DNA of 64,000 nucleotides from Pyrodictiaceae archaeon (lineage in GTDB: Archaea; Thermoproteota; Thermoprotei_A; Sulfolobales; WAQK01). Positions 3,003-58,229 of this stretch are shown piece by piece. The position numbers and the translations under genes were made by a program. Location: positions 9,901 to 73,900 of the forward strand of contig WAQK01000025.1 in NCBI GenBank assembly GCA_015520265.1. The letters are read 5' to 3'. The first letter of the stretch is position 1. Every line of letters begins with the position of its first letter. The notes under the pieces are model-generated. The model worked only from the letters and a program-made list of their open reading frames with translations. It searched no databases and had not been told where the DNA came from.

Positions 3003-3196
3003 TCAAGCTTATTGGCCCGGCCTGGTTACCAGTCACTTCTTGGAGGCGGCCGGCCTGCCCGCTCCACCCCCGACGCCGCCGTTGGGCGGAGGGGTGAGGT
3101 GGGTGGTTCTGCCGTCCGCTACATCCCTCAAGCCTTGCCGGGGAACCCTAATTAGCCCCGGCTGGTCTTCTCCTGGTCTAGGCAGGGTGCCCCGCT

Positions 3197-4012: not shown

Positions 4013-4060
4013 CACCCCGAAACGCGGTGTTTTCCATTTTTAGCAACAAAATAGAAATAA

Positions 4061-4678: not shown

Positions 4679-4734
4679 GCCCCGCGACGCCGAGGAACGG
4701 TATAAGCCCCTCCCCCACAACTATTCTAGCAGGG

Positions 4735-5055: not shown

Positions 5056-5078
5056 GGGCCCAGCTTGACGAGGTCCGC

Positions 5079-6087: not shown

Positions 6088-6349
6088 CACAAGCAGTCCC
6101 TGGAGACGCGTTTGGATGTGGCGAATTATATTTTTCCCTAATACCGGAAAACTATAGTACTTTGACGATGATACAGATATATGTACAATGATGTGCTGAT
6201 CTAAATTATATTTCTTCATCCCATTCGGTATTACCTTTGGTATTACAACAGGTCACGGACAATGATCCTTCGGTCCGACAACCCTAGATCTCCCAAAGCT
6301 AAAATGCCCTTCCAGGGTTAATGGGATATTACGTTCCAGCTGTTCCTCT

Positions 6350-6615
6350 ATGGTTAGTTTTTTGGTTTACTGGTTTGGTTGTTGTTTGTATATTACGTGA
6401 TGGTGGTTGGAGCGGTGTTTTTGGGTTGTGGGTGCTAGGTCTTGTGGTGGTTTTGTGGGGGTTGTGGGTGGGGGTGGTATTATGTTTGTTGTTTTGTTTA
6501 CTTGTTTTTGGTGTTGTTGGTTTGTGTGATTACTGTTTGTTGTTTGTCTTGGTGTTTGTTTTGCTTGGGTGGGTGGTTTGGTGGTGGGTTTGTTTGTCTG
6601 GGTTTGATGGTGTAG
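6350..6615. repeat. Extreme strand-asymmetric G+T-rich low-complexity tract (C+A-rich on the minus strand)
   Basis: Hand count of 6361-6600: 12 A + 10 C in 240 nt, so about 91% G+T. Degenerate GTT/GGT triplets. G-runs include GGGGGTTGTGGGTGGGGGTGG at 6457-6477. Confidence 0.9.
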
Positions 6616-6661
6616 TTAACTGGCGGTTAACTCTACCAGTGGTTAACATTACAGGTTAAAC
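6615..6661. repeat. Cluster of GTTAAC palindromes (3 exact plus 1 GTTAAAC variant)
   Basis: GTTAAC at 6615, 6626 and 6642; GTTAAAC at 6655. Spacing is 11-16 bp. Each is preceded by G/T-G (GGTTAAC). Confidence 0.7.
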
Positions 6662-6860
6662 CTAACTGTTTCAGGTCTCACCTGTGAGCTAATTCCGGGT
6701 TGATTTACTGTTCCCGTCGTGCCGGAGCGGTCTTTGCGCCTCGTTACTGGTTCGATTACCGGTGTTTGTTTTTAGCAACATATTTTCCGGTTGTGCCGCT
6801 GGGGTTGTCTGCACGATTCCGGAGGGAAAAAGATGGTGAAGCGTAGGTTAGAGCTACATC

Positions 6861-8105
6861 CTAGTGGCTGGCACCCTTGTAGTGTGTCATGATGGCCCTG
6901 ATGGCTGGTTTGGCGAGGATGGCGTAGATGAGGAAGCCTATGGCGTGGATCCCGATGGTCACCACTATCTCTACAGGGGTTGGCGTGTAGGGCCTTATCT
7001 GGCCCAGGCTGTCTGGGATGTAGCTGGGCAGCACTATGGTGAGGGTCTTCTCGCCGATCACTGCTATGACCGTGAGCAGCGCTATGAAGGCCACGCCGCC
7101 ACGCGTGCTCCTCACGCTGGGTATCAGAGCCAGGATCACCGCCGCAACACCCAGGGCTATCCAGAGCCAGAAGAGCAGCGAGAGCCAGGCAGCGGCCCTG
7201 CCCAGCAGCAGCACCTCGAGCTGGGCCTTCTTGAAGGGCTCCGTTGTGTACCAGAGCAGCTCCTGCACCTCGCTGAAGGTGAAGTAGAGCCCCACTATCA
7301 GGGCGCCCGTGGTGACGAAGATGGTCTTCCTATACACGTCCCAGTCAACCCTGAACCCCTTCACACTCCTCTCAGCCAGCAGTAGGACGAGGAGCAGCAG
7401 TGCGGGCCCGCTGGCGAAGGCCGTCGCGACGTAGCGGGGCGCCAGCAGCGCGGTGTTCCAGTAGGGCCTAGCGGTGAGGGCCTGGGAGATGAACGCCGTG
7501 ACAGTGTGGATCCCTATGGCTATGGGTGCCGCCACTATAACGAATGGGACCAGGAACCTGGCCGACAGAGACCTGTCCTCCCTATACCTCCCCACAGTGT
7601 ACAGATAGCCCACAAGGTTGATCACCAGGTAGCCAGTGATAACCACGAAGTCCCAGCCCAGCATCGAGCGGGGAAAGTTGGGGAGTAGCGGCATCAGCAC
7701 CATCGCCCTGAGGGGCCTACCCATATCCGCGATGATGAGCAGCAGCACCACTATGAGCGCCGCCACCGCCTGCACCTCCCCCAGCACAGCTATCTTCCTG
7801 AACCCCGGATGGTTGAACACGTAGGCACCCAGCGCGAACATTATGCCAGCAGCAGCAACTCCGACCCAGAACACGAAGAACGATATGTAGAGGCCCCAGG
7901 GAACGCTGTCGCTCATCCCGGTCAGCACCAGGCCGCCCTGCTCGGACCTTAGGAATATGGGAGCGTGCTGCACGCCCACCCACACGTAGACCCCGTAGAC
8001 AGCCATCACCAGGAGGCCTAGGAGCAGGCCATAGTAGGCCCTCCCCCCTCTAAGGCCCTCCCTGACCACGTACTTGACCGTCTCCACTACCTCGCCCACA
8101 CTCAC
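6861..8105 (-). CDS. NrfD/PsrC-family integral membrane quinone-interacting subunit
   Basis: 414-aa polytopic membrane protein. ATGA overlap with the upstream FeS gene. Gene context is cytochrome c - FeS - NrfD. Confidence 0.8.
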   Translation of the reverse strand: MSVGEVVETVKYVVREGLRGGRAYYGLLLGLLVMAVYGVYVWVGVQHAPIFLRSEQGGLVLTGMSDSVPWGLYISFFVFWVGVAAAGIMFALGAYVFNHPGFRKIAVLGEVQAVAALIVVLLLIIADMGRPLRAMVLMPLLPNFPRSMLGWDFVVITGYLVINLVGYLYTVGRYREDRSLSARFLVPFVIVAAPIAIGIHTVTAFISQALTARPYWNTALLAPRYVATAFASGPALLLLVLLLAERSVKGFRVDWDVYRKTIFVTTGALIVGLYFTFSEVQELLWYTTEPFKKAQLEVLLLGRAAAWLSLLFWLWIALGVAAVILALIPSVRSTRGGVAFIALLTVIAVIGEKTLTIVLPSYIPDSLGQIRPYTPTPVEIVVTIGIHAIGFLIYAILAKPAIRAIMTHYKGASH

Positions 8106-9133
8106 TTCTCACCACCTCCCTCCTTGGCAGCGGGGGTGCGGGCCGGGCCGAAGAAGTAGAAGAACCTGGGCCTGGTGCCAGCCTCGGGCTTCAACACGAA
8201 GGCGCCGTACTCCTCCAGCACCCTCCTGATGGGGCTCTCAGGGTCGTTAAGGTCGCCGAAAACCCTCGCGCCCACGGGACACACCTCGACGCACGCAGGT
8301 ATGCCTCCATCCCTGGTCCTGTGGATACACCAGGTACACTTCTCCACCACGTGGACCTGGCGGGGCACGTTGCCTAGTATATGCATGTTGGGGTTCAGCT
8401 CCAGCACCGAGGGCTCCGGCACACCCCAGTTGAAGTGCCTCGCACCGTAGGGGCAAGCCGTCATACAGTACCTGCAGCCGATGCACCTCTCATAGTCTAC
8501 CACCACTATGCCGTCGGGCTCCCTCCAAGTAGCCCTCACGGGGCAAGCCATGACGCATGGCGGGTTCTCGCAGTGCATACAGGCGACCGGCACGTACACC
8601 ATGTCCTCCTTGGGCGCATCAGTGTAGTCGAGCTTGGCGTGGAGGAAGTCTATGGCCTCCCCCTCCCTAGGCGCCTCTAGGACCTTAATCCACTCGATCC
8701 CATTATTCCTGGCAACATTGTTCTCCATGACGCACGCGTAGGCGCAGCGCCTGCAGCCGATACACTTGTTCACGTCGAGGGCCATGGCGAAGGCCACACC
8801 CTGCCTCGCCGGCGTTGCCTTGACCTTAACAGCCTCGCAGCGCCTCCTGGCCTCGGCGCACTCCTCCGAGCCCTCGCCATACTCCCTGCAGATCTCCTCC
8901 ACCTTCCTGGAGCACCACTCCTTGATCCTCTCCTCCTTCCACTCGGCCTTCCTGGCCAGGGTCTCCTCGGTCTCGCGCCGCGGCGGTACGCCGAGAACCT
9001 CGGATAGACTGACTGGCTTTAGCATCGACATCAGCGTGGACCTGCTGACACCTATGAAGGAGATCCCGGCCGCGAAGACGCCGGCCTTGAGCAGGTTCCT
9101 TCTCTTCTCGTCAACCCTCCTAGACCCGCTCAC
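8102..9133 (-). CDS. Tat-exported 4x[4Fe-4S] ferredoxin subunit (NrfC/PsrB/DsrO-like)
   Basis: Start reassigned to the in-frame GTG at 9133, which overlaps the cytochrome stop (GTGA). Twin-arginine signal EKRRNLLKAGVFAAG. Cluster motifs CIGCRRCAYAC, CMHCENPPCVMACP, CIGCRYCMTACP, CTWC..CVEVCP. Confidence 0.85.
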   Translation of the reverse strand: MSGSRRVDEKRRNLLKAGVFAAGISFIGVSRSTLMSMLKPVSLSEVLGVPPRRETEETLARKAEWKEERIKEWCSRKVEEICREYGEGSEECAEARRRCEAVKVKATPARQGVAFAMALDVNKCIGCRRCAYACVMENNVARNNGIEWIKVLEAPREGEAIDFLHAKLDYTDAPKEDMVYVPVACMHCENPPCVMACPVRATWREPDGIVVVDYERCIGCRYCMTACPYGARHFNWGVPEPSVLELNPNMHILGNVPRQVHVVEKCTWCIHRTRDGGIPACVEVCPVGARVFGDLNDPESPIRRVLEEYGAFVLKPEAGTRPRFFYFFGPARTPAAKEGGGEK

Positions 9134-9816
9134 GGCTCCCCACCCCTCTTCCCGATTGGGGCCACCCAGAGGATTATACCCAGACCCGCCAGCACGGCCA
9201 CCACGCCTCCAAGTGCAATGCTGGACTCGTCGGGAGGACTCGGCCTGTCGGAGGGCTCCGGCAGTATGCTGAGGGCCGGCATCGTTGGGTCGTGGGGGTT
9301 GTGGCACTCGACGCAGGCCTTGGCAGGCTCGACGCTGAGGTCCCTATACTCGGGGCAGATGTGGAACCAGTAGCCCACACCCTTGTAGCCCTCCACCAGC
9401 TCAGCCGTGCCCCCGCTACACGTGTAGGTCTGGTTCCCGTGGGCGTGGAGCTGGTAGTCCCTATAGATGTCAGCATGGCAAGTGGAGCAGACCTTGTTGA
9501 GATCCATCAGGCTGTCCCTCGGATGGAGGCCCGGTATCGATATATTGACTCCCCCCACCAGCACGTCAACCTGGGGCGCCTGGTGGCAGTTGGAACAATA
9601 AAGGCCTCCATGGGCGCCCTCCGCCAGATCTATGCCGTGGAACTCGTTGGACCTCGACTGCCCAGTCACTGTGAGGGCTGCGTGGCACTGGGAGCAGGGA
9701 TAGAACTCCTGCCCCTCGCTCGAGGCCGCCAGTATTGGCGCGTAGAGGGCCGCCGCCAGCAGCAGGAGAACCGTTAGCCTGACCCACGAAACCATGGCAT
9801 CCCAGCCTCGGCACAC
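9130..9816 (-). CDS. Membrane-anchored tetraheme c-type cytochrome
   Basis: Four CXXCH motifs (CSQCH, CSNCH, CSTCH, CVECH). N-terminal signal MVSWVRLTVLLLLAAALYAPILAASS (likely true start at 9795). C-terminal TM helix IALGGVVAVLAGLGIILWV. Confidence 0.85.
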   Translation of the reverse strand: MCRGWDAMVSWVRLTVLLLLAAALYAPILAASSEGQEFYPCSQCHAALTVTGQSRSNEFHGIDLAEGAHGGLYCSNCHQAPQVDVLVGGVNISIPGLHPRDSLMDLNKVCSTCHADIYRDYQLHAHGNQTYTCSGGTAELVEGYKGVGYWFHICPEYRDLSVEPAKACVECHNPHDPTMPALSILPEPSDRPSPPDESSIALGGVVAVLAGLGIILWVAPIGKRGGEP

Positions 9817-9909
9817 CCATTGTTTAGACTAGTTATTATAAGCCGGGGACCCTGATATTTAATGTTAGAGGTTAGCAAGGCTAACCCGCCTAGACGCTAA
9901 ACCTTTAAG

Positions 9910-10629
9910 ATGCAGAGCCGATACCAGCCACTGAGCGGTGCGTCGGGTTTGGAGAAACCGGTCGTAGTGAAGATTTCGGGCAGGATAATATCGCCCCAGA
10001 ACATCGGGCTAGTCAAGGAGTACTCCAGGATCCTAAAAGACCATCACACACGTGGCGCCAGGATAGCCGTAGTAGTAGGCGGAGGAGTCACTGCCAGAAA
10101 CTACATAGATGCCGCCCGCAGCCTAGGCTGCTCAGAGGCGGTTCTCGACATCATAGGGATCGACGCATCCAGGCTCAACGCGAGGCTCCTAATAGCGGGA
10201 CTGGGCAGCAACGCACACCCACTGGTACCCCACAACTTAGCCGAGTTCCTCCAGTACTGGGAGAGCGGCAAAATAGTGGTGGCAGGCGGATTCCAGCCGG
10301 GGCAGAGCACCAACGCCGTAGCGGCGGTGATAGCGGAGGCCATAGGGGCTGATAGGCTCGTCAACGCAACTCTGGTGGACGGCATATACGACAAAGACCC
10401 CTCCAAACATAAGGACGCCAGGCTCCTAGAAAAACTGGGCTACCGCGAATTGAGGGAAATTCTCCAAACCAGCCAGACCAGCCTAGCAGGAGCCTACGAA
10501 CTCTTCGACCCAGTAGCCCTGAACGTGGCCGAGAGGAGCAGGATAAAACTGGTCTTCATCAACGGCTGGAACCCCGAGAACCTGGCCAAGGCCCTACGCG
10601 GCGAGAAGGTGGGCACACTGGTCGGGTAA
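9910..10629 (+). CDS. pyrH: Uridylate (UMP) kinase, archaeal type
   Basis: VVKISGRII, VVVGGG and VAGGFQPGQSTNAVAA amino-acid-kinase fold motifs. Confidence 0.85.
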   Translation: MQSRYQPLSGASGLEKPVVVKISGRIISPQNIGLVKEYSRILKDHHTRGARIAVVVGGGVTARNYIDAARSLGCSEAVLDIIGIDASRLNARLLIAGLGSNAHPLVPHNLAEFLQYWESGKIVVAGGFQPGQSTNAVAAVIAEAIGADRLVNATLVDGIYDKDPSKHKDARLLEKLGYRELREILQTSQTSLAGAYELFDPVALNVAERSRIKLVFINGWNPENLAKALRGEKVGTLVG

Positions 10630-10630
10630 A

Positions 10631-10828
10631 CTAGGCGGCCCGCCTGAACACCATTCGGCCCCTATCGTAGTCGGGAACCCTCTCCACCAGGCCATCCGAC
10701 ACCAGCCTCGCCAGCAGCCTACGGGCCTCCATCCTCCTCAAACCCAGTTTCTCCTCGAAAAGCCTCAGAACCTCGCCAGCCTCCAGGGGTTCTCGGCCCA
10801 GGAGCTGCAACGCTTCCTCCAAGTCCAT
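10631..10828 (-). CDS. Small winged-helix-like protein
   Basis: 65-aa ORF. RRLLARLVSDGLVERV resembles a wHTH recognition helix plus wing. Confidence 0.5.
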   Translation of the reverse strand: MDLEEALQLLGREPLEAGEVLRLFEEKLGLRRMEARRLLARLVSDGLVERVPDYDRGRMVFRRAA

Positions 10829-10933
10829 CCGGCGGCACCCAGGTTAATGATAATAGGTCTGAATCCTAAAATCCATAATCGGCTGTGAAGAGGCCCTCGA
10901 TCACCGACAAAGAAGGGATGAGGAAGGCAGGGT

Positions 10934-12334
10934 TTACCTGAGCTCCCGTTCAGCCCTACGTATTTCCTCTATTATAATGTCAGCCGCCCTATCGGCCAGC
11001 TCCAGCGGTATGCTGAGGGGCGGTGCCAGCCTGATCGTGGATAGGCCAGCACCGATCACCAGCACTCCCCGTTTAAAGCACCTTTCCAATATGTTAGCCA
11101 CCTCTTTCCTGGCCGGCTCCTTGGTCTCCCGGTCCCTGACAAGCTCGACACCGATCATCAAACCCTTCCCCCTCACATCACCCACTATTTCGACCTCCTC
11201 CTGCAGCTCCATGAACCTCTTCACCAGATGCTCGCCGACCCTAGCAGCATTCTCGAGGAGGCCCTCCTCCCGGATCACGTCGATAACCGCGCTGGCAGCA
11301 GCTGCAGATACAGGATTACCTCCAAATGTGCTAGCATGACTACCGCCCGGCAGATCCATGACCTCGCTCCTCCCAATAACGGCGCCGAGGGGCAGCCCCG
11401 AAGCAATACCCTTGGCCACCGCCACCAGGTCGGGCTCCACGCCCCAGTGCTGGATGGCGAACCACTTGCCCGTCCTCCCCATCCCCGCCTGAACCTCGTC
11501 GTCCACCAGGAGGATCCCGTACTTGTCGGCCAGGCGGCGGAGCTTGGGGAAGAAGTTGTCGGGAGGAACCACATAGCCACCCTCACCCTGGATGGGCTCG
11601 AAGACTATGGCGGCGGTCTCCTCGGGGGGAACATATTTGCCGAAGACCCAGTCCTCCAGGAACCCTATCACAGCATCACCGCACTCCTCGGGCTCTTCCG
11701 CCCCGAAGGGACACCGATAGGGATAGGGGTAGGGCACATGCACAACGTTAGGGAGGAGTGGGGAGAACCCAGCCCTCTGCACAGGCTTGCTGGAGGTCAG
11801 GCTCATGGCCCCGAAGGTCCTGCCGTGGAAGGCGCCTATAAAGGCTATTATGTAGGGCCTGGAGCCCCTAAAATGGCCCCTCGCCACTTTGAGGGAGGCC
11901 TCCACAGCCTCGGCCCCACTGTTCCCGTAGAACACCTTCTTGCCGCCGCCCATGGGAGCTATTTCTAACAGCTTCTCAGTGAGCTCGACTATCTCCTCGT
12001 AGTAGAAGTCTGTGAGCGAATAATGTAACAACTTTTCGGCCTGCCTCTTGATGGCCTCCACCACCCTAGGGTGCTGGTGCCCCACGTTCAGCACGGCCAG
12101 ACCCGAGTTAAAATCAATGTAAATGTTACCGTCCACATCCTCCACAAGGGCGCCCCTACCCGTCTTAACAACGAGGGGATACCAGCGCACGAAGGACTGC
12201 ATAAGGACCCTGCTGTCCCTTTCAATGATCTCCCGGGCCTTTGGCCCCGGGGGCTCGACAATTATCCGAGGAGCCTCTACCGTGGACTTACCCGTTTCCA
12301 CCCGATCCATAATTAGCAGCACCCCGGGGGACAC
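10934..12334 (-). CDS. Class III pyridoxal-phosphate aminotransferase (4-aminobutyrate/acetylornithine aminotransferase family)
   Basis: DDEVQAGMGRTGKWFA, GGNPVS and FHGRT motifs. 466 aa. Confidence 0.85.
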   Translation of the reverse strand: MSPGVLLIMDRVETGKSTVEAPRIIVEPPGPKAREIIERDSRVLMQSFVRWYPLVVKTGRGALVEDVDGNIYIDFNSGLAVLNVGHQHPRVVEAIKRQAEKLLHYSLTDFYYEEIVELTEKLLEIAPMGGGKKVFYGNSGAEAVEASLKVARGHFRGSRPYIIAFIGAFHGRTFGAMSLTSSKPVQRAGFSPLLPNVVHVPYPYPYRCPFGAEEPEECGDAVIGFLEDWVFGKYVPPEETAAIVFEPIQGEGGYVVPPDNFFPKLRRLADKYGILLVDDEVQAGMGRTGKWFAIQHWGVEPDLVAVAKGIASGLPLGAVIGRSEVMDLPGGSHASTFGGNPVSAAAASAVIDVIREEGLLENAARVGEHLVKRFMELQEEVEIVGDVRGKGLMIGVELVRDRETKEPARKEVANILERCFKRGVLVIGAGLSTIRLAPPLSIPLELADRAADIIIEEIRRAERELR

Positions 12335-26441: not shown

Positions 26442-27167
26442 TTAAGATACGTTTCTTCGGCCCTTTAGGAGAACTCTTCCGAGATCCTCAACAATCTGGG
26501 GCCCCGTACTTGTCCCGATCCTGTTGGCGCCAGCCTCCAGCATAAGCAGCGCGTCAACAGCGGTCCTTATACCGCCAGCGGCCTTTACGCCCATCCTTTC
26601 GGAGATGGCCCCACGTATGATAAGTACATCCCTTACCGTCGCGCCCCTCTTCCCATAACCTGTATTAGTTTTAACATAGTCGGCGCCGACCCTTTCCACA
26701 AGTCTTGCAGCCTCCACTATCTCGTCGTCGTCCAGAAGACTGGTCTCAATGATTATCTTGACCACTGTGCCCCGCTCCTTGGCCAGTCTAGTGAGGACAG
26801 ACAGCTCCTCCTCAACCTGTCTTAGCCGTCTAGCCTTGAAGAGAGCCACATTCATTACTATGTCCACTTCTGCCACGCCATGGTTCAATACATGTTCCAG
26901 TTCAGCCTCCTTCGCCTTAAGGGGGGCGTAGCCGAAGGGAAAACCTATTACAGTACATATCCGTGCGTTTGAGATCGAGACGGCGTAGTCTACATACGTG
27001 GGTGGTACTACAGCGCAGGCGAATCCATAGCGCTCAGTCTCTCTGACAACCTTCTCGATCATTCCCGGCGTGGTCTCAGGCTTAAGCACGGTATGATCTA
27101 TAACTCCTGCAATACCCTTGGCTCCAAGCCTCTCGGCTTCCTGCCTGAGTCTTTCAGGGAGGCTCAT
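26442..27167 (-). CDS. deoC: Deoxyribose-phosphate aldolase
   Basis: IDHTVLKPETT, KIIIETS and VKAAGGIR class I aldolase motifs. Confidence 0.85.
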   Translation of the reverse strand: MSLPERLRQEAERLGAKGIAGVIDHTVLKPETTPGMIEKVVRETERYGFACAVVPPTYVDYAVSISNARICTVIGFPFGYAPLKAKEAELEHVLNHGVAEVDIVMNVALFKARRLRQVEEELSVLTRLAKERGTVVKIIIETSLLDDDEIVEAARLVERVGADYVKTNTGYGKRGATVRDVLIIRGAISERMGVKAAGGIRTAVDALLMLEAGANRIGTSTGPQIVEDLGRVLLKGRRNVS

Positions 27168-28456
27168 TCGATCCAGTCACCGGTCTCTATCTTCTCAGGG
27201 ATGTATTTGAATGCTAGGAATCTGAGGCCTTTACTGGTGAGGGCCTCTATCTCCAGCTTAGAGAGGGTTGCGAAGAATATGCCTACCTCACGTATCCACT
27301 CTGGGGTCTTGAACCAGTCATAGCCTGCATGCTTCTTCTTGGTTATCTGCTCCCTCTCCTTGCCACTTATCCTGAGCTTGGAGAGGACGTGGTTCTTGAA
27401 GGGCTTGAACACTTCTATACCAACGAGCTCTATTGCCCTGAGCACATCCTTGGGCTTGGCACGAATAATGTAGTTCCTCCTCTCCTTCGGGTCGAGGAGC
27501 GGCTTCTTACCTGTGAGCACTTTTTTGAGGCCCCTCTTGCCAAGGAGCTTTGCGAAGTTGTTAGCATATTTTTCGAGAACCTCATCCCCGAAGATGTCGC
27601 TGGGCATCACGCCTATGAACTTGGCCTGGGGTGTGGCTAGCCTCTCGCTCTCGTAGCTAAGGGTGACGGAGCCTATCTTGAAGACGCTGTAAATGTACCA
27701 TCCGTAGGGGTCCGCGTCGGCCAGAATGTAAACAGGCAGTCCGAGCTCCTCGTTGAGTCTGCGCACGAACCTCCTGGTAGCCCTGTCGGGCTGCCCGGCG
27801 CTGGTCACTAGGAGGGCCTTGTGCTGATCCCAGAACCTTATCCTGTGGAGCTGCTGGAACACCGCGTCCTTCTCTATGACTAGCACGTATTCAGCGTCTA
27901 CGTCGAGGAATTCTATTTGGTCGGGTGTGGGCTCTATGGAGTAGGCGCCATGCCCCATCCTGCTTAGATCGATCACGTCGCCGCCGCTCCTGATCCTCAT
28001 TCTGCCTACGACTTTACCCTTCTCTTTACTGAGTATCAGCATCTCCTCCCTGAGTAGCCCAGTGTAAGCCTCAATGTCCCTTATGGCCGCGTCGGATTCC
28101 CGCTGCTCGTCCCAGGTGTTCTCTTTCCCCTTGATGGTGTGCTTGCCCCTGTAGTACAGGTCCCTTATAGTAGGGTACTCGTTGTTCACCAGAGCCTCGT
28201 AGATTATGGAGGCCATGAGGACCGTCTGCATGAACCTCTTAGCCTCACCGGTGTCGAGGAAGCTCCTCTTAAGCTTCTCCGGGCCCAGGAGGAGAAGCTT
28301 CCTCTTGGCATCATAGATCGTGTTGCTGAGGGTCCTCTTGGGCATTATGAGGACAGGCCTCTCTCCCCTCTCCATTTGCTCCACTATCTCCAGGAACCTC
28401 TTCCGGATCACCTCGGCGGCCTTCATCCTCGCAGCCACATCAACGTCCTGCACCAA
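27164..28456 (-). CDS. top6A: DNA topoisomerase VI subunit A
   Basis: Spo11/Top6A-type sequence. Toprim region YILADADPYGWYIYSV. ATGA overlap with deoC. Adjacent to top6B. Confidence 0.9.
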   Translation of the reverse strand: MVQDVDVAARMKAAEVIRKRFLEIVEQMERGERPVLIMPKRTLSNTIYDAKRKLLLLGPEKLKRSFLDTGEAKRFMQTVLMASIIYEALVNNEYPTIRDLYYRGKHTIKGKENTWDEQRESDAAIRDIEAYTGLLREEMLILSKEKGKVVGRMRIRSGGDVIDLSRMGHGAYSIEPTPDQIEFLDVDAEYVLVIEKDAVFQQLHRIRFWDQHKALLVTSAGQPDRATRRFVRRLNEELGLPVYILADADPYGWYIYSVFKIGSVTLSYESERLATPQAKFIGVMPSDIFGDEVLEKYANNFAKLLGKRGLKKVLTGKKPLLDPKERRNYIIRAKPKDVLRAIELVGIEVFKPFKNHVLSKLRISGKEREQITKKKHAGYDWFKTPEWIREVGIFFATLSKLEIEALTSKGLRFLAFKYIPEKIETGDWIE

Positions 28457-28462
28457 GCCTTC

Positions 28463-30046
28463 TCACCTCGCCAGGCGAGTTTCAAGCTTGGCCAGCTGTT
28501 CCTCAGCTAGGCCTACATGCCGCCTTATGGTTTCCAGCAACATGTTCCTAATCTTCTTCTCGCCGTCGCTTTCGCCCATGAGGACTGACAGGCTCCTAGC
28601 GACCTCGGGCACGTATTTCAGGAAGGTCTCCACTCTGCGACGCATCTCCTCCTCCTGCCTCTTCTTGCTGAGGAACCTTCTGAGCCTGCGGGCAGCCTCC
28701 CTGACAGCGTTCCTTATCTCCTTCTCAATCTCAGGGACATCTGCAATGCTCTCCTTACCTACCCCCTTAAAGGGCACCTTGGTGCTGCAGACGTGGACCA
28801 GCACCACTAGGGGTGCAGGAAAGTTGACCAGATACTGCTTCCAATCAAACTTCTCAGGATCAATAACCTTCCACGCCACATCGGATTTCGTGTCGAAGAG
28901 CAGAGGGATCTTGTTAGCGTACCTTATGAGCTGAGGCTCCCTATCCGACTTAACGCCTCCGCCATATGCAATCCCCACCTCGATTATGAATGGGTGCCCG
29001 GAATAAGCCGAGGGCCTCCTGGTTACAGCGGCAACGAACTCGGGTCTGAAAACCCTCTCGAGGCCAGCCTTTATTATATCCTCACTGAAGGGTGAGAGCG
29101 AGTCGGCCCTGGGAGGCTTGAATCCTGTGTACTCTTTCAGTTTTCTCGCCAGCTTCTCGAGGCTCCTTACAGTCATCTTTCTGACGTCAGCCTTCGGGTC
29201 CAGGCCAGCCCATTCCAGGAAACGGTCAACCGTAACCTCGCCTATACCCTGGAAGCTTTCTATGAGGAATTCACGCAAGGTGGTAGACTTCGCGGAGGCT
29301 ATGAGGAACTTAAGCATCTCTATGTCGACGCCGTGAGGATGCGGTTTCACCGACTTGGGCGGAGGTGGGAGTTTCTCTATAGCCCTAAGATATCTTGTCA
29401 CCTTGCCGTCAGGGTCCCTGAACACTAGCTCAGCGTAGGGTGCGGCCACCGCCGTTTTCTCTATATAGTCGTAAATGTATTGTCTAGCCCTGGACCAGTC
29501 ACCCTCAACCGTAATGCTTACTATAGTGCCGTGCCATCTGCTATTCTTTCTCCAGCTCTTTTGTTCTAGGATTAAAGGTTTGTTCTGCTTGATATCTATA
29601 TTAAGCTTGAAGTAATATATTCTGCCCGAGACTATGGGCGAAGTTATGACCTCCACGGGTTTGCCTGTGGTTATCTGGCCGTAGAGAATGGCCATCTTGG
29701 CTCCCAGACCGTACATGCCCCTGGTCTGCCTGAGAACATACTTAGAGCTGAAGAGAACCTGGCCGAAGGCGCGTGGCACGTATTGGGGTGGTATGCCGAC
29801 ACCGTTGTCTTCCACAGTGACTATATAGTGGTTAGGGTTATCCCGAGACCTCTCGATGTAAAGCTTAATTATAGGGAGTATGCCGTGCGTGTCGGTGGCA
29901 TCGAGGGCGTTCTCAACTAGCTCTCTAACTGTCTGATAAAGAGCACGGGTCGGATTAGCGAAGCCAGCTATCTCCCTGTTTCTATAGAAGAACTCCGCCG
30001 CACTGAGGCTCTTAAAGGTCTCGGGCGCTGCCGCACCGCTGGGCAT
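28463..30046 (-). CDS. top6B: DNA topoisomerase VI subunit B
   Basis: GHKL ATPase motifs ELVENALDA, DNGVGIP and GLGAKMA. 527 aa. Confidence 0.9.
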   Translation of the reverse strand: MPSGAAAPETFKSLSAAEFFYRNREIAGFANPTRALYQTVRELVENALDATDTHGILPIIKLYIERSRDNPNHYIVTVEDNGVGIPPQYVPRAFGQVLFSSKYVLRQTRGMYGLGAKMAILYGQITTGKPVEVITSPIVSGRIYYFKLNIDIKQNKPLILEQKSWRKNSRWHGTIVSITVEGDWSRARQYIYDYIEKTAVAAPYAELVFRDPDGKVTRYLRAIEKLPPPPKSVKPHPHGVDIEMLKFLIASAKSTTLREFLIESFQGIGEVTVDRFLEWAGLDPKADVRKMTVRSLEKLARKLKEYTGFKPPRADSLSPFSEDIIKAGLERVFRPEFVAAVTRRPSAYSGHPFIIEVGIAYGGGVKSDREPQLIRYANKIPLLFDTKSDVAWKVIDPEKFDWKQYLVNFPAPLVVLVHVCSTKVPFKGVGKESIADVPEIEKEIRNAVREAARRLRRFLSKKRQEEEMRRRVETFLKYVPEVARSLSVLMGESDGEKKIRNMLLETIRRHVGLAEEQLAKLETRLAR

Positions 30047-33421: not shown

Positions 33422-35722
33422 GTGAGGGGCATGCCGAGAAGCGAGGGCCGTGTGCCGGCAGTGGTGAAGCAGTGGATAACCCTGGGGTTGAAGCGTTACT
33501 ATCACGGCGACAGCGGCTCCGACCTTAAACCTGTCCACAGGTATAACGTAGGTCCTGTGGACGTGTACATAGTATATTCCGCCAGCACAGGAAGATACTA
33601 TTACTTCATAGATGAGCCAGAGCTACCTGAAGAGCTCAGAGATCCCCTAGAGAGGCTATTATCCGAGGCAGCCCTGGGCAGGCTCAGGCTAAAGGACGGG
33701 GTCGAGCACCTGGCGGAGCAGCTGGCCTCCAGGCACCCAGAACTTGCAGACGTGGCGGAGAAGCAGTACCCTGTTCTAACCTATTATCTCCAGAGAAGCC
33801 TGAGCGGATACGGCCCCCTATACCCGCTCCTCAAGGACAGCATGATAGAGGAGGTGGCGGTAGAAGCGCCCGGGATACCTGTCGCAGTTTATCACAGGCT
33901 CTATAGCGACGGGTGGATGGACACCAACATAGTGCTCGTCGAGGAGGAGCTCGACTCGCTTGCCCTCTCAATCGCCAGAAAGGCAGGCAAACATCTGAGT
34001 GTAGCTGTGCCACTTGCTGAGGGTCTAACGGAGGAGGGGCACCGGGTAGCCCTCACCTTTTCTCGGGAAGTCTCCCGGAGGGGGAGTAGCATAGTGATCA
34101 GAAAATACCCTGACAAGCCCTTAACGATCGTGGATCTGTTGAAGAGCAACACGCTCTCACCTCTGGAGGCCGCCTATCTCTGGATGCTCGTGGAAGCCAA
34201 GGCGTTCCTCCTAATAGTTGGTGGTATGGCCAGCGGCAAGACAAGCATGCTCCAAGCGCTCGCCACACTGATTCCCCCGGACCAGAGGATAGTTACGCTG
34301 GAAGATACGCCCGAGCTGAACCTCCCCCACACCCACTGGGATCCCCTAGTTACCAGGTACACCTACTTCTCGGAGACCTCCGCCAACGTCGACCTCCTGG
34401 CACTCGCCAAGTTCGCCCTCAGGAGACGGTCAGACTACATCATTATAGGAGAGGTCAGAGGCGAGGAGGCGCGCATGCTAGCCCAAGCCGCTGCCACTGG
34501 GCAGGGCTCTATGTGTCTAGAATACTCAGACAGAGTGCTAGTGAAGCAGAATGGGAATGCTAAGCTGATCCAAATAGGGGATCTAGTCGAGCACTGCCTC
34601 AGCATAGGCTACGGCTGCAACATGGAGATCCTTTCATTCGACCCGCTCCGCTGGAAGCCCGTCTGGGCCAGGATACGTAGATATGTGAAGACCTACACAA
34701 CCAGCTGGGTAGAAGTGAAAACCCTGGCCGGGCGGCAGTTTAGGGTCACTCCAGACCACCCGGTACCAGTGATAACCTCCGGAAACCCAAGCGTGAAACC
34801 TGCGTACAGGCTTAAGCCTGGAGACAAGATCCTGGTAATCGGCCGTCTGCCACCGACGGGGACCCGGCGAAAACAGGCTGGCACTACAGGTAGCGGGTAC
34901 AGACTAAAAGTGGAGCTAGCGGGTGCAACTAAGCGTCGTGAAGGCTCCATAGGCGCCTTGCTGGCCTCTAGGGATCCACAGCTCGTCGAGGGCTTCGCTG
35001 AATCCATCCTGGATACCGCCCAGAAGAGCGGGCCTGACACCTACAACTTCAAGGATATGGAGAAAGCATACCTGGCCCACTATGCTCTAAAACTCCTAGG
35101 CGTGGACTCAGCCATATCGGGGAACGGGGAACATGTTACACTGAAAATACTTCGTGGAGCCCGTAACGACGCACCCTTCCTGACCGACGTGATAACCGGT
35201 GTCAGGATAATTAGGCTGAACAGCAAGGAGCCAGCCTACGACGTTGAGGTCGATACAACCCATCTCTTCGTGCACGGGTCCTCCATCGTGACACACAACT
35301 GTACATTCCATGCGGATGGGGTAGAGTCCACTCTAGTCCGCCTATCCTCGCCGCCCATAAGTCTGGGCGAGTCCTTCCTCTCCCTCATATGGGCTATACT
35401 GGTGATGAGAAGGGTTAGGATTAGGGGCAAGGGGACGGTCCGCCGATTGATAGAGGTCGCAGAAATGGTTCCCACCAGTGGGGCTAGAACTGTGTTCGCC
35501 TGGAATCCTGAAACAGACCAGCACCTGCCGTCGACAGCAGAGGAAGTTGTAGGCAGGAGCTACAGGCTGAAGCAGGTGGCCAAGCTATATGGGTGGAGCA
35601 CAGAAGAGCTGGCGGCAGAGCTGGGCAAGCGCGAGCTGTTCCTCACCGCGTTGTCCAGAGGAGGCTCTCCCTCCTACCTAGACGTGGCCCGCGCTGTTGC
35701 AAGATTCTATGCGAGGAGGTAG
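33422..35722 (+). CDS. Type II/IV secretion-system ATPase (FlaI/PilB/VirB11/KlbA family) interrupted by an intein
   Basis: Walker A GGMASGKTSML and Walker B DYIIIGEVRGEEA. The extein sequence AATGQGSM | intein | CTFHADGVEST restores the conserved ATGH..T.HA box. Confidence 0.85.
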   Translation: MRGMPRSEGRVPAVVKQWITLGLKRYYHGDSGSDLKPVHRYNVGPVDVYIVYSASTGRYYYFIDEPELPEELRDPLERLLSEAALGRLRLKDGVEHLAEQLASRHPELADVAEKQYPVLTYYLQRSLSGYGPLYPLLKDSMIEEVAVEAPGIPVAVYHRLYSDGWMDTNIVLVEEELDSLALSIARKAGKHLSVAVPLAEGLTEEGHRVALTFSREVSRRGSSIVIRKYPDKPLTIVDLLKSNTLSPLEAAYLWMLVEAKAFLLIVGGMASGKTSMLQALATLIPPDQRIVTLEDTPELNLPHTHWDPLVTRYTYFSETSANVDLLALAKFALRRRSDYIIIGEVRGEEARMLAQAAATGQGSMCLEYSDRVLVKQNGNAKLIQIGDLVEHCLSIGYGCNMEILSFDPLRWKPVWARIRRYVKTYTTSWVEVKTLAGRQFRVTPDHPVPVITSGNPSVKPAYRLKPGDKILVIGRLPPTGTRRKQAGTTGSGYRLKVELAGATKRREGSIGALLASRDPQLVEGFAESILDTAQKSGPDTYNFKDMEKAYLAHYALKLLGVDSAISGNGEHVTLKILRGARNDAPFLTDVITGVRIIRLNSKEPAYDVEVDTTHLFVHGSSIVTHNCTFHADGVESTLVRLSSPPISLGESFLSLIWAILVMRRVRIRGKGTVRRLIEVAEMVPTSGARTVFAWNPETDQHLPSTAEEVVGRSYRLKQVAKLYGWSTEELAAELGKRELFLTALSRGGSPSYLDVARAVARFYARR
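34514..35299 (+). mobile_element. Intein (262 aa) inside the secretion ATPase
   Basis: Starts CLEYSDRVLV (Cys1), has block B TPDHP, ends SSIVTHN followed by the +1 Cys (CTFHAD). In frame with the host ORF (34514 and 35297 both checked). Confidence 0.8.
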
Positions 35723-42072: not shown

Positions 42073-42171
42073 GGGCCCGTCGTCTAGCCTGGTTAGGACG
42101 CCGCCCTTACAGGGCCAAAGGACGCCTAGGAGAGGCGGAGGTCCGGGGTTCAAATCCCCGCGGGCCCACCA
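42073..42171 (+). tRNA. tRNA-Val (anticodon UAC) with a 21-nt canonical intron (42112-42132) and encoded CCA
   Basis: Acceptor GGGCCCG/CGGGCCC, D arm GTCT..GGAC, anticodon stem CCGCC/GGCGG, loop CT-TAC-A[intron]A, T arm CGGGG-TTCAAAT-CCCCG, then ACCA. Confidence 0.85.
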
Positions 42172-46448: not shown

Positions 46449-46994
46449 TTGCCCAGGTGTTTCGAGATGCCGTACACTCGGGGCGCCCTCAAAGCACTCC
46501 TGGCTGGCAAGCCATGGCTCTTACCCATAGTGGCGGTTATGATTAGACACCCCTTCGCAATGACGACAAGCGAGCTGGCTGAGCGTGTGGGAGTGCGTTC
46601 TCCCCTAGTTAAGCGGGCCCTATGGTGGCTCTCCAAAGCCGATGCCGTGGCTGCTTCCGAGACATTGCCTAGAAGGTATAGGCTCAGAGATCAGGCTAGG
46701 ATAGAAGTCGAGGAAATCCTGCGTAGTAGCTGGCAGAAGGAGAGAAGAATGGTCTTTAGGCAGGGCGACGAGTATCTGCTTATCGCAGTTAAGCCTACTC
46801 GTATTTCGGTGTGGACGGTGCCAGCAGACTTGGTGGAAAGAGTGGCCGAGGTTCTAAGGGTTAGCGGTGGCTGCTTCAAACCGGTGGATGTGTCCAATGC
46901 TCTAGGGATCCCCGTCAGATTGGCCAGCCTCGCGCTTTCTGTGCTCCACGTCTCTGGTAGAGTGTCACGAAGCAGCGGGTGCTACCAGGCGTAG
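46449..46994 (+). CDS. Hypothetical protein with winged-helix-like segments
   Basis: [26 protein letters not shown] and a second similar C-terminal segment. 181 aa. Confidence 0.5.
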
Positions 46995-47146: not shown

Positions 47147-47974
47147 ATGGTCGTGGTTGACATTGTTACCCAGCTAAAAGACCTAGCTATCGACATAGTG
47201 TCTATTGTCGTGATAGTGGGTGCAGGATATCTTGTAGGAGTGGGTGCTGGCATCCTTGTAAGAATGTTCTCGGCCAAGCTCCTAGAAGGCTATGCTAGGA
47301 CCTCTGATGCAGGTAAACGGCTCCAGGAGGCCGGAGTCCCCGGTGTGCTTGAACTCTTAACTGTGGCCTTCGCAGCGTCACTCGCCTTCCTTGCGGCAGT
47401 AGACTACGTTGATCTGGGTGGCGAGATCGGCGCCGTCCTCTACACTGTAGCCAGCTACCTGCCCCGAGTCGTCGTGGGAGTTGCTGTGCTCTTCCTGGGG
47501 ATACTGCTTTCAGCGGGTTTCTCATCCGCGCTGGGCGACGTGTTGGCGAGGATGCTTCCCAAGAAGCGCCGTGAAATCGCAGAGCTGGGAAGAGGCCTTA
47601 TCTTGGTGGGCCTAGTGGCCCTAGTGGTCTCGGTGTCCCTCGGAATAATGGGCCTGACTGGTACCTATGTGTATTCGCTTATACTTGGATTAGCGATAAT
47701 GGCGATGGGCGTCATAGCTGGCTCGATGCTTGTTGACAGTATTGTCGAGGACAACCCTGAGTTTAAGGAGTTTGCAGGGTACGCTAAGTTCCTAGTCTAC
47801 TTGATATTCATCATGATAGGCCTTGCCGCCATCTTCACCCAGTACCCTGGAGCCTCCAGGGTTATAACGACGCTCTCCTGGGGAGTGGCGCTGGCGATGG
47901 CTATACTCCTGCTGCCCCTGGTGTACACGTTGGCCAAGAGGCTGGTGGGCGAGACGGCTAGAAGGAGGGGCTGA
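47147..47974 (+). CDS. Polytopic membrane protein, unknown function
   Basis: 275 aa with about 6-7 hydrophobic helices. Confidence 0.6.
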   Translation: MVVVDIVTQLKDLAIDIVSIVVIVGAGYLVGVGAGILVRMFSAKLLEGYARTSDAGKRLQEAGVPGVLELLTVAFAASLAFLAAVDYVDLGGEIGAVLYTVASYLPRVVVGVAVLFLGILLSAGFSSALGDVLARMLPKKRREIAELGRGLILVGLVALVVSVSLGIMGLTGTYVYSLILGLAIMAMGVIAGSMLVDSIVEDNPEFKEFAGYAKFLVYLIFIMIGLAAIFTQYPGASRVITTLSWGVALAMAILLLPLVYTLAKRLVGETARRRG

Positions 47975-54343: not shown

Positions 54344-54640
54344 AGGCCGAACCCGCTATAATTTTGTTGCCCGCGATATTATTAACTTACCACCAGGTTT
54401 CCGTCATACAATGCATGTAACTTTTAACTACCAACACCACCTATTTAAAATGAGTCTACAGGAACCTGGAGGGGCGTAGACAAGGGAGCGAGGGGAGAAA
54501 CCATAACATACCTGCCTACACCCGAGGAGATAAGGAGGCTGCGGAAGAAGGCCGGGCTCTCGCAGCGCGAGCTAGCCCGTAGAGCTGGCGTCAGCCAGGC
54601 ACTCATAGCCAGGCTCGAAAGAGGCACCATTAATCCCCGC

Positions 54641-55072
54641 ATGTCGACACTGAAGAAGATACTGGACGCCATAAATGAGTCGCTCAAGGAACGGGTTACG
54701 GCTAAGACCGTGATGCACACGCCGGTGATCACGCTTCACCCCGACGACACAGTATGCAGAGCCGTCAAACTCATGGACCACTACGGGATATCCCAGATAC
54801 CTGTAATAGACTACGAGGGCAGGCTTTTAGGCACGATATACGAAACATCGCTGCTCAAGCTCTTAGCACACAGCGACTCACCCAACCCCTGCGAAACCAA
54901 GATATCCGAGGTCATGGAGGACCCGCTACCAGTAGTGTCGCCATCGACCAGTATTTCAACCATAATCGCACTCCTAACGGAGCACCCGGCACTGCTTGTA
55001 ATTGAGAAGGGCGTTATACAGGGCATTATAACCAAGATCGACATAATCAGGATGAGATTGCTCCACGAATAA
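54641..55072 (+). CDS. CBS-pair protein whose XRE-type HTH domain is encoded in-frame upstream (54449-54640) without any ATG/GTG/TTG start
   Basis: Upstream in-frame translation reads ..[51 protein letters not shown]... An ATG at 54450 is in another frame and stops after 9 codons. Confidence 0.7.
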   Translation: MSTLKKILDAINESLKERVTAKTVMHTPVITLHPDDTVCRAVKLMDHYGISQIPVIDYEGRLLGTIYETSLLKLLAHSDSPNPCETKISEVMEDPLPVVSPSTSISTIIALLTEHPALLVIEKGVIQGIITKIDIIRMRLLHE

Positions 55073-55166
55073 ATGCCCCTTAAAAGATAAGGGCTCAGGT
55101 ATTACCTTAAAATCTCCATACGAAGCATCCTGCTTGATAGAACGCATCTTTCCATACTTGTCCCAC

Positions 55167-55186
55167 TCCACTGGAAGCCAAGGGGT
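55167..55186 (+). repeat. ORB-like element 1: TCCACTGGAAGCCAAGGGGT
   Basis: Exact 20-mer shared with 55485-55504. TCCA-C-TGGA dyad followed by a G-run. Confidence 0.8.
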
Positions 55187-55250
55187 TTAAAAAGCGAGGT
55201 TTATCATGCATGTGTGTAGAATCGGCGAGGCGCGACCGAGAACCCGGTAT

Positions 55251-55280
55251 AAGCCCCCACCCCATAGCTACCACTCTACA
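55251..55280 (-). repeat. Degenerate inverted ORB-like element
   Basis: Reverse complement is TGTAGAGTGGTAGCTATGGGGTGGGGGCTT. GGTAGCTATGGGGTGGGGG matches GGAAGCCAAGGGGTGGGGG of element 2 at 16 of 19 positions. Confidence 0.5.
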
Positions 55281-55484
55281 GGACTACATATACCATGGCC
55301 AGTCTCCCTCCATGTATGCAGATTAAGGAGTGACGCTAGTGGCAGTACCGTGGCAACGAATTAGCATCCTCCATCAATGAATAACCTTAACGGATTAGTG
55401 AACGAACACAATTATAGAAATCTATATATAGAGATCATTATACAAACCGACCGGCACAAACGCCATATCCAACATAAAACTAGT

Positions 55485-55509
55485 TCCACTGGAAGCCAAG
55501 GGGTGGGGG
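55485..55509 (+). repeat. ORB-like element 2: TCCACTGGAAGCCAAGGGGTGGGGG
   Basis: Exact 20-mer repeat of element 1 with an extended G-string. Followed by two half-sites TTCCACTAC / CTCCACTAC. Confidence 0.8.
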
Positions 55510-55571
55510 TTTCCACTACCTCTCCACTACACGTACTACTATACGTGTATACGGTTTATAGGACCCCTCTG

Positions 55572-55591
55572 CTTCCACTGGAAGCGGTGGG
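55572..55591 (+). repeat. ORB-like element 3: CTTCCACTGGAAGCGGTGGG
   Basis: Perfect 15-nt palindrome GCTTCCA-C-TGGAAGC (55571-55585) followed by GGTGGG. Confidence 0.7.
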
Positions 55592-55712
55592 CTCCATACG
55601 CAATGAGGGTTTGTGAATAGAGATTCACGTTTAATATATTTAATAATGTATATTTGATCAAGACAAACCCTGTCAGTGTGCGTGTCCCCGCTTACCCGGC
55701 CTATAGAACTAC

Positions 55713-57053
55713 TTAACGGTACCAGAACCACCAGCTGTGCTGTGGAGGTGTGGGCGGGTCTGTCTTCTCTTTGCCGTATCTCTCCAAGGGCTTTGTCAAG
55801 TGACCCATGGCGGAGGGTGCAGCTACATATATTCCTCTGCTGATGTCGCGTGAAATAGGGATCCTTTCTTTCCGCGCATGGGGATCTCTGTATCCGCATT
55901 TCCTGCATTTGAAGCCCTTACCTTTGCCCGCTGAAGTCATCCTAGCCCCGCACCGTGGACAGCGCGGGTTCACTAGCCTGTACGTTTCTGATAGTTCGAT
56001 TATTTCCAGCTTCTCTACGTTGAAGGTGACCCCTCGCGCGGATGATGCCGGTTTAACCACACCGCTTATCCTGATCCTGTCTCCTGGCACCAGTTTTCTA
56101 GCCACGCGTGGGAGTGTGCGTGTTGGCTCGTAGAAGGCAGCATCAATAGTTCCTGTATCGTCGGTTACGCGTAGGATCACATGCCCCTTTGGCAGGATCC
56201 TGGGAGAACTAGCCACAGTCACCTCGACGCTACCAGTGCGATATGGTTTGAGTTCTGCTACTTGTCTAGGCACATGATGTGCGTCTGTCGCCTGGTTGGA
56301 GCGATATATAATCCAGGCATCCAGAGGCTCGTCTATTTCTAGGAGTCCAAGGGCCCGGCGCAACACGCGGGGATCTTCACCCCTTATGCCGACGAGTATG
56401 GGGTCGAGCCCGCGGGGTGTTATGAGCACCCTATCCTCATCTTCGTCGTAGTTGTTGAAGGTGAAGGGCCTGGTTTCGGCATCCATCCTCTTCACGCTGC
56501 CAGGGTCTACTAGGCGGGGGGAACCCCAGCGTTCAGGGGACCTATACGCCAGGAGCTCGTAGGTGTAGTCCTCGTCCTCCAGCAGCGCCCCTAGCGCAGT
56601 CAGGGCGCCGACAATACCCCGTGCACCCCTGTACTCCCTGGGTACCAGCACTCCAAGCTTCTCCGCGTACCTGTACGCCAGGTCAGGTGTAACTAGGTCG
56701 GTTAGCGCCATCTTGTACATCGGCTGGAAAGCATGGGGATCAACATCTACTGCGAAAACCATTCCAGGCGAGCTTGTGGGATGCCGCGTGGCGCCCCTGT
56801 ACTCGGCGCTGGCCTGAACCAGCGCCTCCACAGCGTCTTCCACCCTTCCTTCGGGTAGTCTCACCCTGAGAACTACTGCAGCGTTACCCCTAGTTTTCCA
56901 GGGTATCCCAGGGTTTAGTCTCACCAGTAGCGGGTAGTCCTCAAAGACGGCACCCAGCTCAAAAAGAAGTTTTACGGCGATGGCCGCGAAATGTGTGGTG
57001 CAACCCCCCTCGGGGGAATCGTGATCATCTATACCTACGTGTAGCCTCCTCAT
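55713..57053 (-). CDS. tiaS: tRNA(Ile2) 2-agmatinylcytidine synthetase TiaS
   Basis: N-terminal HVGIDDHDSPEGGCTTHF and C-terminal zinc ribbon CPRCGARM..CRKCG. 446 aa. Confidence 0.85.
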   Translation of the reverse strand: MRRLHVGIDDHDSPEGGCTTHFAAIAVKLLFELGAVFEDYPLLVRLNPGIPWKTRGNAAVVLRVRLPEGRVEDAVEALVQASAEYRGATRHPTSSPGMVFAVDVDPHAFQPMYKMALTDLVTPDLAYRYAEKLGVLVPREYRGARGIVGALTALGALLEDEDYTYELLAYRSPERWGSPRLVDPGSVKRMDAETRPFTFNNYDEDEDRVLITPRGLDPILVGIRGEDPRVLRRALGLLEIDEPLDAWIIYRSNQATDAHHVPRQVAELKPYRTGSVEVTVASSPRILPKGHVILRVTDDTGTIDAAFYEPTRTLPRVARKLVPGDRIRISGVVKPASSARGVTFNVEKLEIIELSETYRLVNPRCPRCGARMTSAGKGKGFKCRKCGYRDPHARKERIPISRDISRGIYVAAPSAMGHLTKPLERYGKEKTDPPTPPQHSWWFWYR

Positions 57054-57907: not shown

Positions 57908-58229
57908 GGCCGGTCCCGGCTGGCGGCCACGGGCCTAAGGGCCCGAGGAAACTCCGCCCTCCCCGCGGCACCGGGGCCCCGCAAGGGGCGCGGGGAAACC
58001 CGCGGCAACGGCACAGAAACGACACGGCCACCGCCGGATGACCGTGAGGCGGCGAGGGCTTCCCGGCGACGGGGAGCCAGGCAACCCGCTGAGAACGGTG
58101 GTGGATGCGTTGAAACGGCCGTCCCCCGGGGAGCAAGGCCTCCGCCGCTGAGGCGCCGCGCGAGGCGGGGGGAACCGCTCAGCCAAATGCCGCCGCAGTA
58201 CAGAAGGCGGGTTATAGCCGGGACCGGCC
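57908..58229 (+). ncRNA. rnpB: RNase P RNA (archaeal type A-like)
   Basis: 13-bp P1 helix: GGCCGGTCCCGGC (57908-20) pairs with GCCGGGACCGGCC (58217-29). P4/CR-I-like GAGGAAACTCCG and CR-V-like AGTACAGAAGGCGGGTTATAG. Very GC-rich. Only spurious Pro/Arg/Gly-rich ORFs overlap it. Confidence 0.85.

Follow-up and report, generated by a model that had tools for sequence, protein, structure and literature searches.

A probable oriC1-type replication origin beside an HTH_3-CBS regulator gene in an uncultured Pyrodictiaceae archaeon

A 64 kb stretch of DNA from an uncultured, thermophilic Pyrodictiaceae archaeon (contig WAQK01000025.1; the window) contains a 640 bp gap, at positions 55073–55712, that is bounded by the 3′ ends of two genes, a CBS-domain gene on the plus strand and tiaS on the minus strand. 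The gap is very probably (at about 0.85) a chromosome origin of the oriC1 type, composed of origin recognition boxes (ORBs), organized like Ori1 of Aeropyrum pernix and predicted by homology to fire in dependence on, and to be bound by, the initiator Orc1-1. The first-pass annotation had placed the gap between the same convergent 3′ ends, with coordinates that agree with ours, and had called it an oriC; this call is supported by ORB matches that are unique in the window, by conservation, by recurrence in six lineages and by alignment with A. pernix Ori1. The origin type itself is already known, and the locus would be a newly located example of it. What is new here is modest, namely the conserved linkage to a gene for an HTH_3-CBS regulator and the presence of conserved blocks outside the ORBs.

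Four boxes were recognized in the gap. ORB1 (55167–55186) and ORB2 (55485–55509), both on the plus strand, share the sequence TCCACTGGAAGCCAAGGGGT, which in ORB2 carries a GGGGG extension, and each scored 18/20 against the ‘common’ archaeal ORB motif TCCA[CG]T[TG]GAAA[TC][GA]AAGGGGT of the Ori-Finder 2 paper (PMC4164010). At 55251–55280 lies a degenerate inverted ORB with an extended G-string, reading TAGAGTGGTAGCTATGGGGTGGGGGCTT on the minus strand, which forms an inverted repeat with ORB2 and is 83 % complementary to ORB2 and its G-tail. These two inner boxes carry GGGGTGGGGG as an extended tail, and a core of ~200 bp, rich in AT, separates their facing dyad ends. ORB3 (55563–55593, plus strand) has a palindromic dyad, GCTTCCACTGGAAGC, at 55571–55585. 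Its plus-strand reading is TCCACTGGAAGCGGTGGGCT (55574–55593) with the tail GGTGGGCT, and in this species it also reads as an ORB on the minus strand, as TCCAGTGGAAGCAGAGGGGT (55563–55582) with the tail AGAGGGGT. The plus-strand reading is the one conserved in the related loci L009, L007 and L017, and it is the one that pairs with ORB4 of A. pernix.

The core contains a putative duplex-unwinding element (DUE) at 55346–55483, with a GC content of 0.33–0.37 against 0.567 for the window as a whole, placing it in the lowest 0.4 % of 100 bp windows. Its top strand is A-rich, with AT skew of up to +0.40, and a conserved 17 bp motif, AGATCATTATACAAACC, lies within it at 55433–55449. The first-pass annotation had already described most of this layout. 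Its exact 20 bp direct repeat was verified at both 55167 and 55485, and its degenerate inverted copy, the AT-rich stretch between that copy and the second element, the facing dyad ends and the plus orientation of the third copy were all borne out, the last by the orientation kept in the relatives and in A. pernix, and the facing polarity by its recurrence in A. pernix, Pyrolobus fumarii, L017, L019 and L020. The perfect 15 nt palindrome that it reported in the third copy is real, with its start corrected from 55572 to 55571.

The ORB-consensus match is statistically unique in the window. When all 128 000 window positions were scored against the common motif, scores of at least 16/20 were obtained at four, all of them inside the gap (18, 18, 18 and 16), and no position elsewhere in the 64 kb scored above 15/20. 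Likewise, the 20-mer TCCACTGGAAGCCAAGGGGT was observed three times at three or fewer mismatches, against 0.01 expected from shuffled sequence. Across 249 kb, comprising the window and the related loci, all 20 of the 20 matches at 16/20 or better fell in ORB clusters beside HTH_3-CBS orthologues. Among 2.9 million viral contigs, nine single matches to the motif were found, which is about the number estimated by chance.

A tiaS search of 185 579 species genomes yielded only two relatives and did not recover the source genome. To measure conservation, the gap was aligned three ways with those of L009, whose TiaS protein is 87 % identical, and L007, at 74 %. The alignment consisted of sharp islands of identity within a gap that was otherwise unalignable and rich in indels. 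ORB1 with its flanks was 97 % identical to L009 and 91 % to L007; the corresponding values were 96 and 89 % for ORB2, 93 and 85 % for ORB3 together with a 55 bp block to its right, and 96 and 88 % for a core block at 55424–55448 that holds most of AGATCATTATACAAACC and stands amid unalignable spacer. The G-string of the degenerate inverted ORB (CCCCC.CCCC) was invariant across the three species, and in L007 the counterpart of ORB1, TCCAGTGGAAACCAAGGGGT, scored 19/20 to the common motif. By comparison, gap spacers were 22–41 % identical to L007, and fourfold degenerate sites in tiaS and in the CBS gene, at 35–40 % identity to L007, were saturated. Over both relatives, the blocks were 85–97 % identical, against 35–62 % for fourfold sites of tiaS and 40–71 % for those of the CBS gene. 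The boxes and core are thus under strong purifying selection, and the pattern of islands is what would be expected of protein-binding sites and not of a transcript.

Several of the conserved islands lie outside the boxes. A left block, GTATTACCTTAAAAYCTCCA.ACGAAG (55100–55125), showed 92 % identity with L009 and 88 % with L007. The invariant flanks of ORB1 (55150–55207) include TCCATAC (55151–55157) and the TATA-like TTTAAAAAGCGAGGTTTATCAT, and TCCATAC is present at both outer edges. The right block (55594–55648) comprises CTCCATACGCAAT, a palindrome GTGAAT-N4-ATTCAC (55613–55628) whose loop varies among the three species, and, next to it, the AT-rich TTTAATATATTTAATAATG (55630–55648); GGGCTCCATACGCA, part of this block, also occurs in L017 after its ORB3. 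An operator or a cruciform is a possible role for this part of the gap, and the non-ORB blocks (left, TCCATAC, TTTAAAAAGCGAGGTTTATCAT and right) may be sites for accessory factors.

The closest known counterpart is A. pernix Ori1, also called oriC1 (NC_000854, 444 909–445 231; Grainge et al. 2006; Robinson and Bell 2007), the sequence of which is printed in the supplement to PMC8287685. On alignment, ORB1, the degenerate inverted ORB, ORB2 and ORB3 of the window paired with ORB1–4 of A. pernix in the same order and orientation (+, −, core, +, +). A. pernix ORB1, CTCCACAGGAAACGGAGGGGT, aligned to the window's ORB1, and the outer boxes of both origins resemble it; A. pernix ORB3, ATCCAGCGGAAAAAGGGGGTGTGGGG, aligned to the window's ORB2. 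Also common to the two are the extended G-strings of the inner boxes (GGGGGTGTGGGG in A. pernix, GGGGTGGGGG in the window), the core motif ATACAAA(A)ACC, a top strand rich in A over the right-hand half of the core, and the stretch after the last box (GGAGGGGTCGTATAC and GGTGGGCTCCATAC, respectively). Since this last stretch is similar, the plus-strand reading of ORB3 is favoured. The two elements also differ. The window element is the longer, with a core of ~200 bp against ~130 bp and a spacing of 89 bp from the third box to the fourth against ~48 bp, and, unlike Ori1, it has a degenerate dyad in its left inner box, a perfect 15 nt palindromic dyad in ORB3 that yields an ORB on both strands, and extra conserved blocks to the left and right of the boxes.

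According to PMC8287685, which cites Grainge et al. 2006, all four ORBs of A. pernix are bound by Orc1-1, and sensitivity to nuclease P1 arises in the AT-rich stretch that separates ORB2 from ORB3. Both origins of A. pernix are active by marker-frequency analysis; there is one of each type, an Orc1-1-type oriC1, which matches Sulfolobus oriC1 in its dependence on Orc1-1, and a WhiP-type oriC2 (PMC10769869). Sulfolobus oriC1 shares with the window the ORB consensus TCCAGTGGAAAC...GGGG and inverted ORBs around an AT-rich DUE, but has three ORBs (−, −, DUE, +) and lies upstream of, and directly adjoining, its initiator gene cdc6-1, whereas in the window there are four boxes and the 64 kb contain no initiator gene. 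In the oriC of Pyrococcus abyssi and P. furiosus, AT-rich DNA is likewise surrounded by TCCAnTGGAA-type repeats, both ORBs and mini-ORBs, to which Cdc6/Orc1 binds (PMC1904270), but this origin is larger, has many mini-ORBs, is linked to cdc6 and serves a euryarchaeal chromosome with a single origin. WhiP-dependent origins (Sulfolobus oriC3 and A. pernix oriC2), whose defining feature is a neighbouring whiP gene (PMC4010727), are known from this group of organisms too, but the boxes in the window are canonical ORBs.

The architecture was found to recur beside orthologues of the HTH_3-CBS gene. ORB clusters adjoined these orthologues in L007, L009, P. fumarii (L016), L017/L018, L019 and L020, and in every cluster the boxes flanking the core had their dyads inward and their G-strings outward. 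In the hydrothermal-vent loci L017/L018 (57 % identical), the cluster again lies in the gap downstream of the gene, where ORB1 (CTCCACAGGAAACCATGGGGTTTAAAAGG) and a degenerate box in inverted orientation are separated by a long core rich in AT from ORB2 (TTCCATAGGAAGCTGAGGGGTGGGGGG) and ORB3; the right flank in L017 is DUF131 and not tiaS, and at the place of the right block after the last ORB L017 carries a different palindrome, TTGCATG-G-CATGCAA (7050–7110). L019 has inverted boxes scoring 18/20 at 8833 (minus) and 8982 (plus), with GGGGTGGGGG tails, around 130 bp of AT-rich DNA, and L020 has three boxes at 18–19/20, including an inverted pair at 9780 (minus) and 9957 (plus). In the culturable P. 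fumarii 1A (CP002838, 143.0–143.9 kb, corresponding to L016 5690–6600), boxes at 5691 and 5790 (both minus) are followed by an AT-rich core with TTTATACAAAAC and then by a box at 5975 (plus). Here the cluster immediately precedes the HTH_3-CBS gene and is next to tRNA-Asp (5539–5616, minus strand), with the innermost ORB ending ~7 bp ahead of the start codon; a further ORB scoring 18/20 is located within the 3′ coding end of the gene (6572–6591), and the CBS gene and tiaS converge 8 bp apart. ATACAAA(A)AC is found again within the AT-rich core in A. pernix Ori1, in L017 and in P. fumarii.

A block comprising RpiA, Elf1, PcrB, MazG, Sec61beta, HTH_3-CBS, tiaS, AsnC and Tsr3 keeps its synteny between this lineage and P. 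fumarii, and synteny in L009 is as in the window. In L007, two ABC-transporter genes (ATPase and permease; 2710–4445) lie between tiaS and the origin, with the gap still adjoining the CBS gene. These intervening genes show that the origin's linkage is with the CBS gene rather than tiaS, an attachment that has been maintained over evolution. The linkage is not pan-archaeal, because no ORBs were found near the HTH_3-CBS orthologues of Nezhaarchaeota (L021) and Methanosarcina (L022). A scan of metagenomes with the HTH_3-CBS protein returned weak, irrelevant matches only, and a profile search for an A. pernix orthologue gave no Aeropyrum protein among the best 120 matches.

No initiator gene accompanies the element. 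No Orc1/Cdc6 domain was detected in any gene of the window, nor was an Orc1/Cdc6 gene detected in the 6–10 kb flanks of the related loci. By Pfam annotation the window carries housekeeping genes, and its AAA+ proteins are just two, PAN, the ATPase of the proteasome, and a FlaI-type ATPase that bears an intein. The absence of orc1/cdc6 within 64 kb, as the first-pass annotation had claimed, therefore stands, but its description as unusual does not, given that neither cdc6 gene of A. pernix adjoins an origin (PMC5333045); for the same reason, the lack of an adjacent orc1/cdc6 gene is not disqualifying. No whiP-like gene was recognized in the window, in what is a weak test made without a WhiP reference model. 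Neither of two conserved, unannotated genes 8 kb from the gap could be tied to WhiP: 46476–46994 encodes 172 aa with two winged-helix-like segments and had a sub-threshold TrmB match alone, and 47147–47974 encodes a polytopic membrane protein of 275 aa.

Several points weigh against identification of the gap as an origin. The lineage is an uncultured one represented by a metagenome-assembled genome (MAG), for which we infer firing, Orc1 binding and melting by homology. Disparity curves (GC, AT, RY and MK) had no extreme at the locus (55.3 kb), within a 64 kb window that is too short to judge; GC disparity fell steadily across the window, tracking gene orientation. Nucleotide skews are weak in Crenarchaeota with multiple origins. 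The dyad of the left inner box is degenerate (TAGAGTGGTAGC), and the uniqueness of the motif applies to the window and the fetched related loci, not to the source genome as a whole. Lastly, the likeness to A. pernix Ori1 covers the element itself and not the flanking genes, and the Ori1 text was machine-read from a PDF, with one G of ORB1 restored and the last 19 nt taken from a published primer.

The skew result would also fit an alternative in which the boxes are sites for an Orc1-family protein or for the HTH_3-CBS regulator, acting in transcription control or chromosome organization, or in which they mark a dormant or relic origin. Dormant origins exist in haloarchaea (PMC4595724), and an invariant TATA-like TTTAAAAAGCG after ORB1, TTTAATATATTTAATAATG in the right block and the P. 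fumarii boxes just before the start codon and inside the 3′ end of the HTH_3-CBS gene could all be taken as regulatory. We nevertheless consider this alternative unlikely. Both genes flanking the gap end there, so that no promoter is present to be controlled, and the cluster moves from downstream to upstream of the HTH_3-CBS gene between lineages, which a promoter-operator arrangement would not tolerate. Moreover, the four boxes have the order and polarity of a proven origin around an AT-rich core with a conserved motif, and their conservation at 85–91 % against saturated neutral sites argues for function at the present day, so that current use is favoured over a dormant origin. A sigma-70 promoter scan was set aside as not applicable to archaea.

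Capture from an integrated plasmid or virus, which would make the element a remnant of a foreign origin or attachment site and not an ancestral chromosomal origin, is very improbable. The idea has precedent, having been proposed for the multiple origins of archaea after Aeropyrum was compared with Sulfolobus (Robinson and Bell 2007, cited in PMC4010727), and the right flank does differ between lineages. However, the genes on either side belong to a housekeeping block whose synteny reaches P. fumarii, genes for an integrase, rep or viral proteins are absent, and matches to the motif in viral contigs are about as many as estimated by chance. There is still less reason to regard the gap as a structured non-coding RNA with the repeats as parts of its helices, since, despite its 640 bp length, conserved blocks and inverted repeats from which long-range helices can be drawn, Rfam returned no match at E≤1, the covariation term from RNAalifold was unfavourable (+2.0) with the predicted helices being the invariant inverted ORBs, and the short conserved islands, set between indel-rich, unalignable spacers of variable length, fit a DNA-binding consensus on both strands.

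If the gap is an oriC1-type origin, an initiator of the Orc1-1 type, encoded elsewhere in the genome, would bind each box. Contacts of Orc1 with DNA are made by its winged-helix domain and by the initiator-specific motif of the AAA+ domain (PMC3607249, PMC3089459); in the window, the former would contact the TCCA-N-TGGAA dyad and the latter the G-rich segment. Binding would be predicted to bend and underwind the DNA, initiators on the inverted inner boxes would recruit MCM, and melting would take place around the conserved ATCATTATACAAACC motif of the AT-rich core.

The extreme conservation and adjacency of the HTH_3-CBS protein make it an obvious candidate for an accessory factor acting on the non-ORB blocks. 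A stronger form of this proposal, that it may be a dedicated origin-associated factor which binds these blocks and couples firing to an adenosyl ligand (ATP, AMP or S-adenosylmethionine) through its CBS pair, is speculative and given low odds. It was prompted by the position of the gene beside an ORB cluster in six Thermoproteota lineages, by identity of 98–100 % in this protein between species whose TiaS proteins are 74–87 % identical, and by the swapping of the gap palindrome GTGAAT-N4-ATTCAC in L017, as in a co-evolving operator. If true, the protein would be a nutrient- or energy-sensing regulator of the initiation of archaeal replication.

An origin at this site would place the start of replication on the chromosome of an uncultured lineage resembling Desulfurococcales. 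It would also suggest that related Thermoproteota widely share the four-box design of A. pernix Ori1, and likewise the distance of the origin from its initiator gene, neither being peculiar to one species. The HTH_3-CBS gene could then serve as a simple landmark for oriC1-type origins in MAGs, aiding estimates of replication rate from metagenomes by peak-to-trough methods as well as comparative studies of how origins evolve. Further origin factors would have candidate sites in the conserved non-ORB blocks.

The flanking genes were annotated as follows. The left neighbour (54497–55072, plus strand, with its stop at 55072) encodes a regulator with an XRE-type HTH_3 domain and a CBS pair, orthologues of which matched Pfam HTH_3/HTH_31 and CBS. 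The ATG-started reading frame covers 54641–55072, and conserved HTH coding reaches upstream to at least 54497; from ETITY onward the translation is 100 % identical to that of L009. Between 54449 and 54660 there is no in-frame ATG, GTG or TTG before the ATG at 54641, which suggests a non-canonical start codon or a 1 nt assembly error. An out-of-frame ATG is present at 54450, directly after a TATA-like TTTAAA. The right neighbour, in this species only, is tiaS (55713–57053, minus strand), encoding tRNA-Ile2 agmatidine synthase with Pfam TiaS_TCKD, FLD and Zn_ribbon matches. Its protein is identical to one from uncultured MAG contigs and hot-spring metagenome assemblies, and the nearest species-level relatives of the window are labelled Desulfurococcales archaeon.

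Other features of the window and related loci were also recorded. An archaeal RNase P RNA (Rfam, 158.9 bits) is located at 57911–58226, 0.9 kb past tiaS, with spurious reading frames overlapping it, and a tRNA-Val(TAC) of 99 nt, presumed to contain an intron, is at 42073–42171. Genes for topoisomerase VI subunits A and B occupy 27164–30046, 25 kb from the origin locus, and a gene for a superfamily 2 (DEAD/ResIII) helicase at 1–1714 is incomplete, extending past the window's left end. For the FlaI/T2SSE-type ATPase with an intein (33422–35722), the exact protein was absent from the contig index and the 766 aa ATPase, when looked up, was not on record; the orthologues in L010 and L019 also bear inteins. 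L020, which is labelled Thermoprotei, encodes the PolD large subunit (DP2), and this gene, together with those for an RPA-like OB-fold protein and NucS, is located within 8 kb of the ORB cluster of that locus (1–12000).

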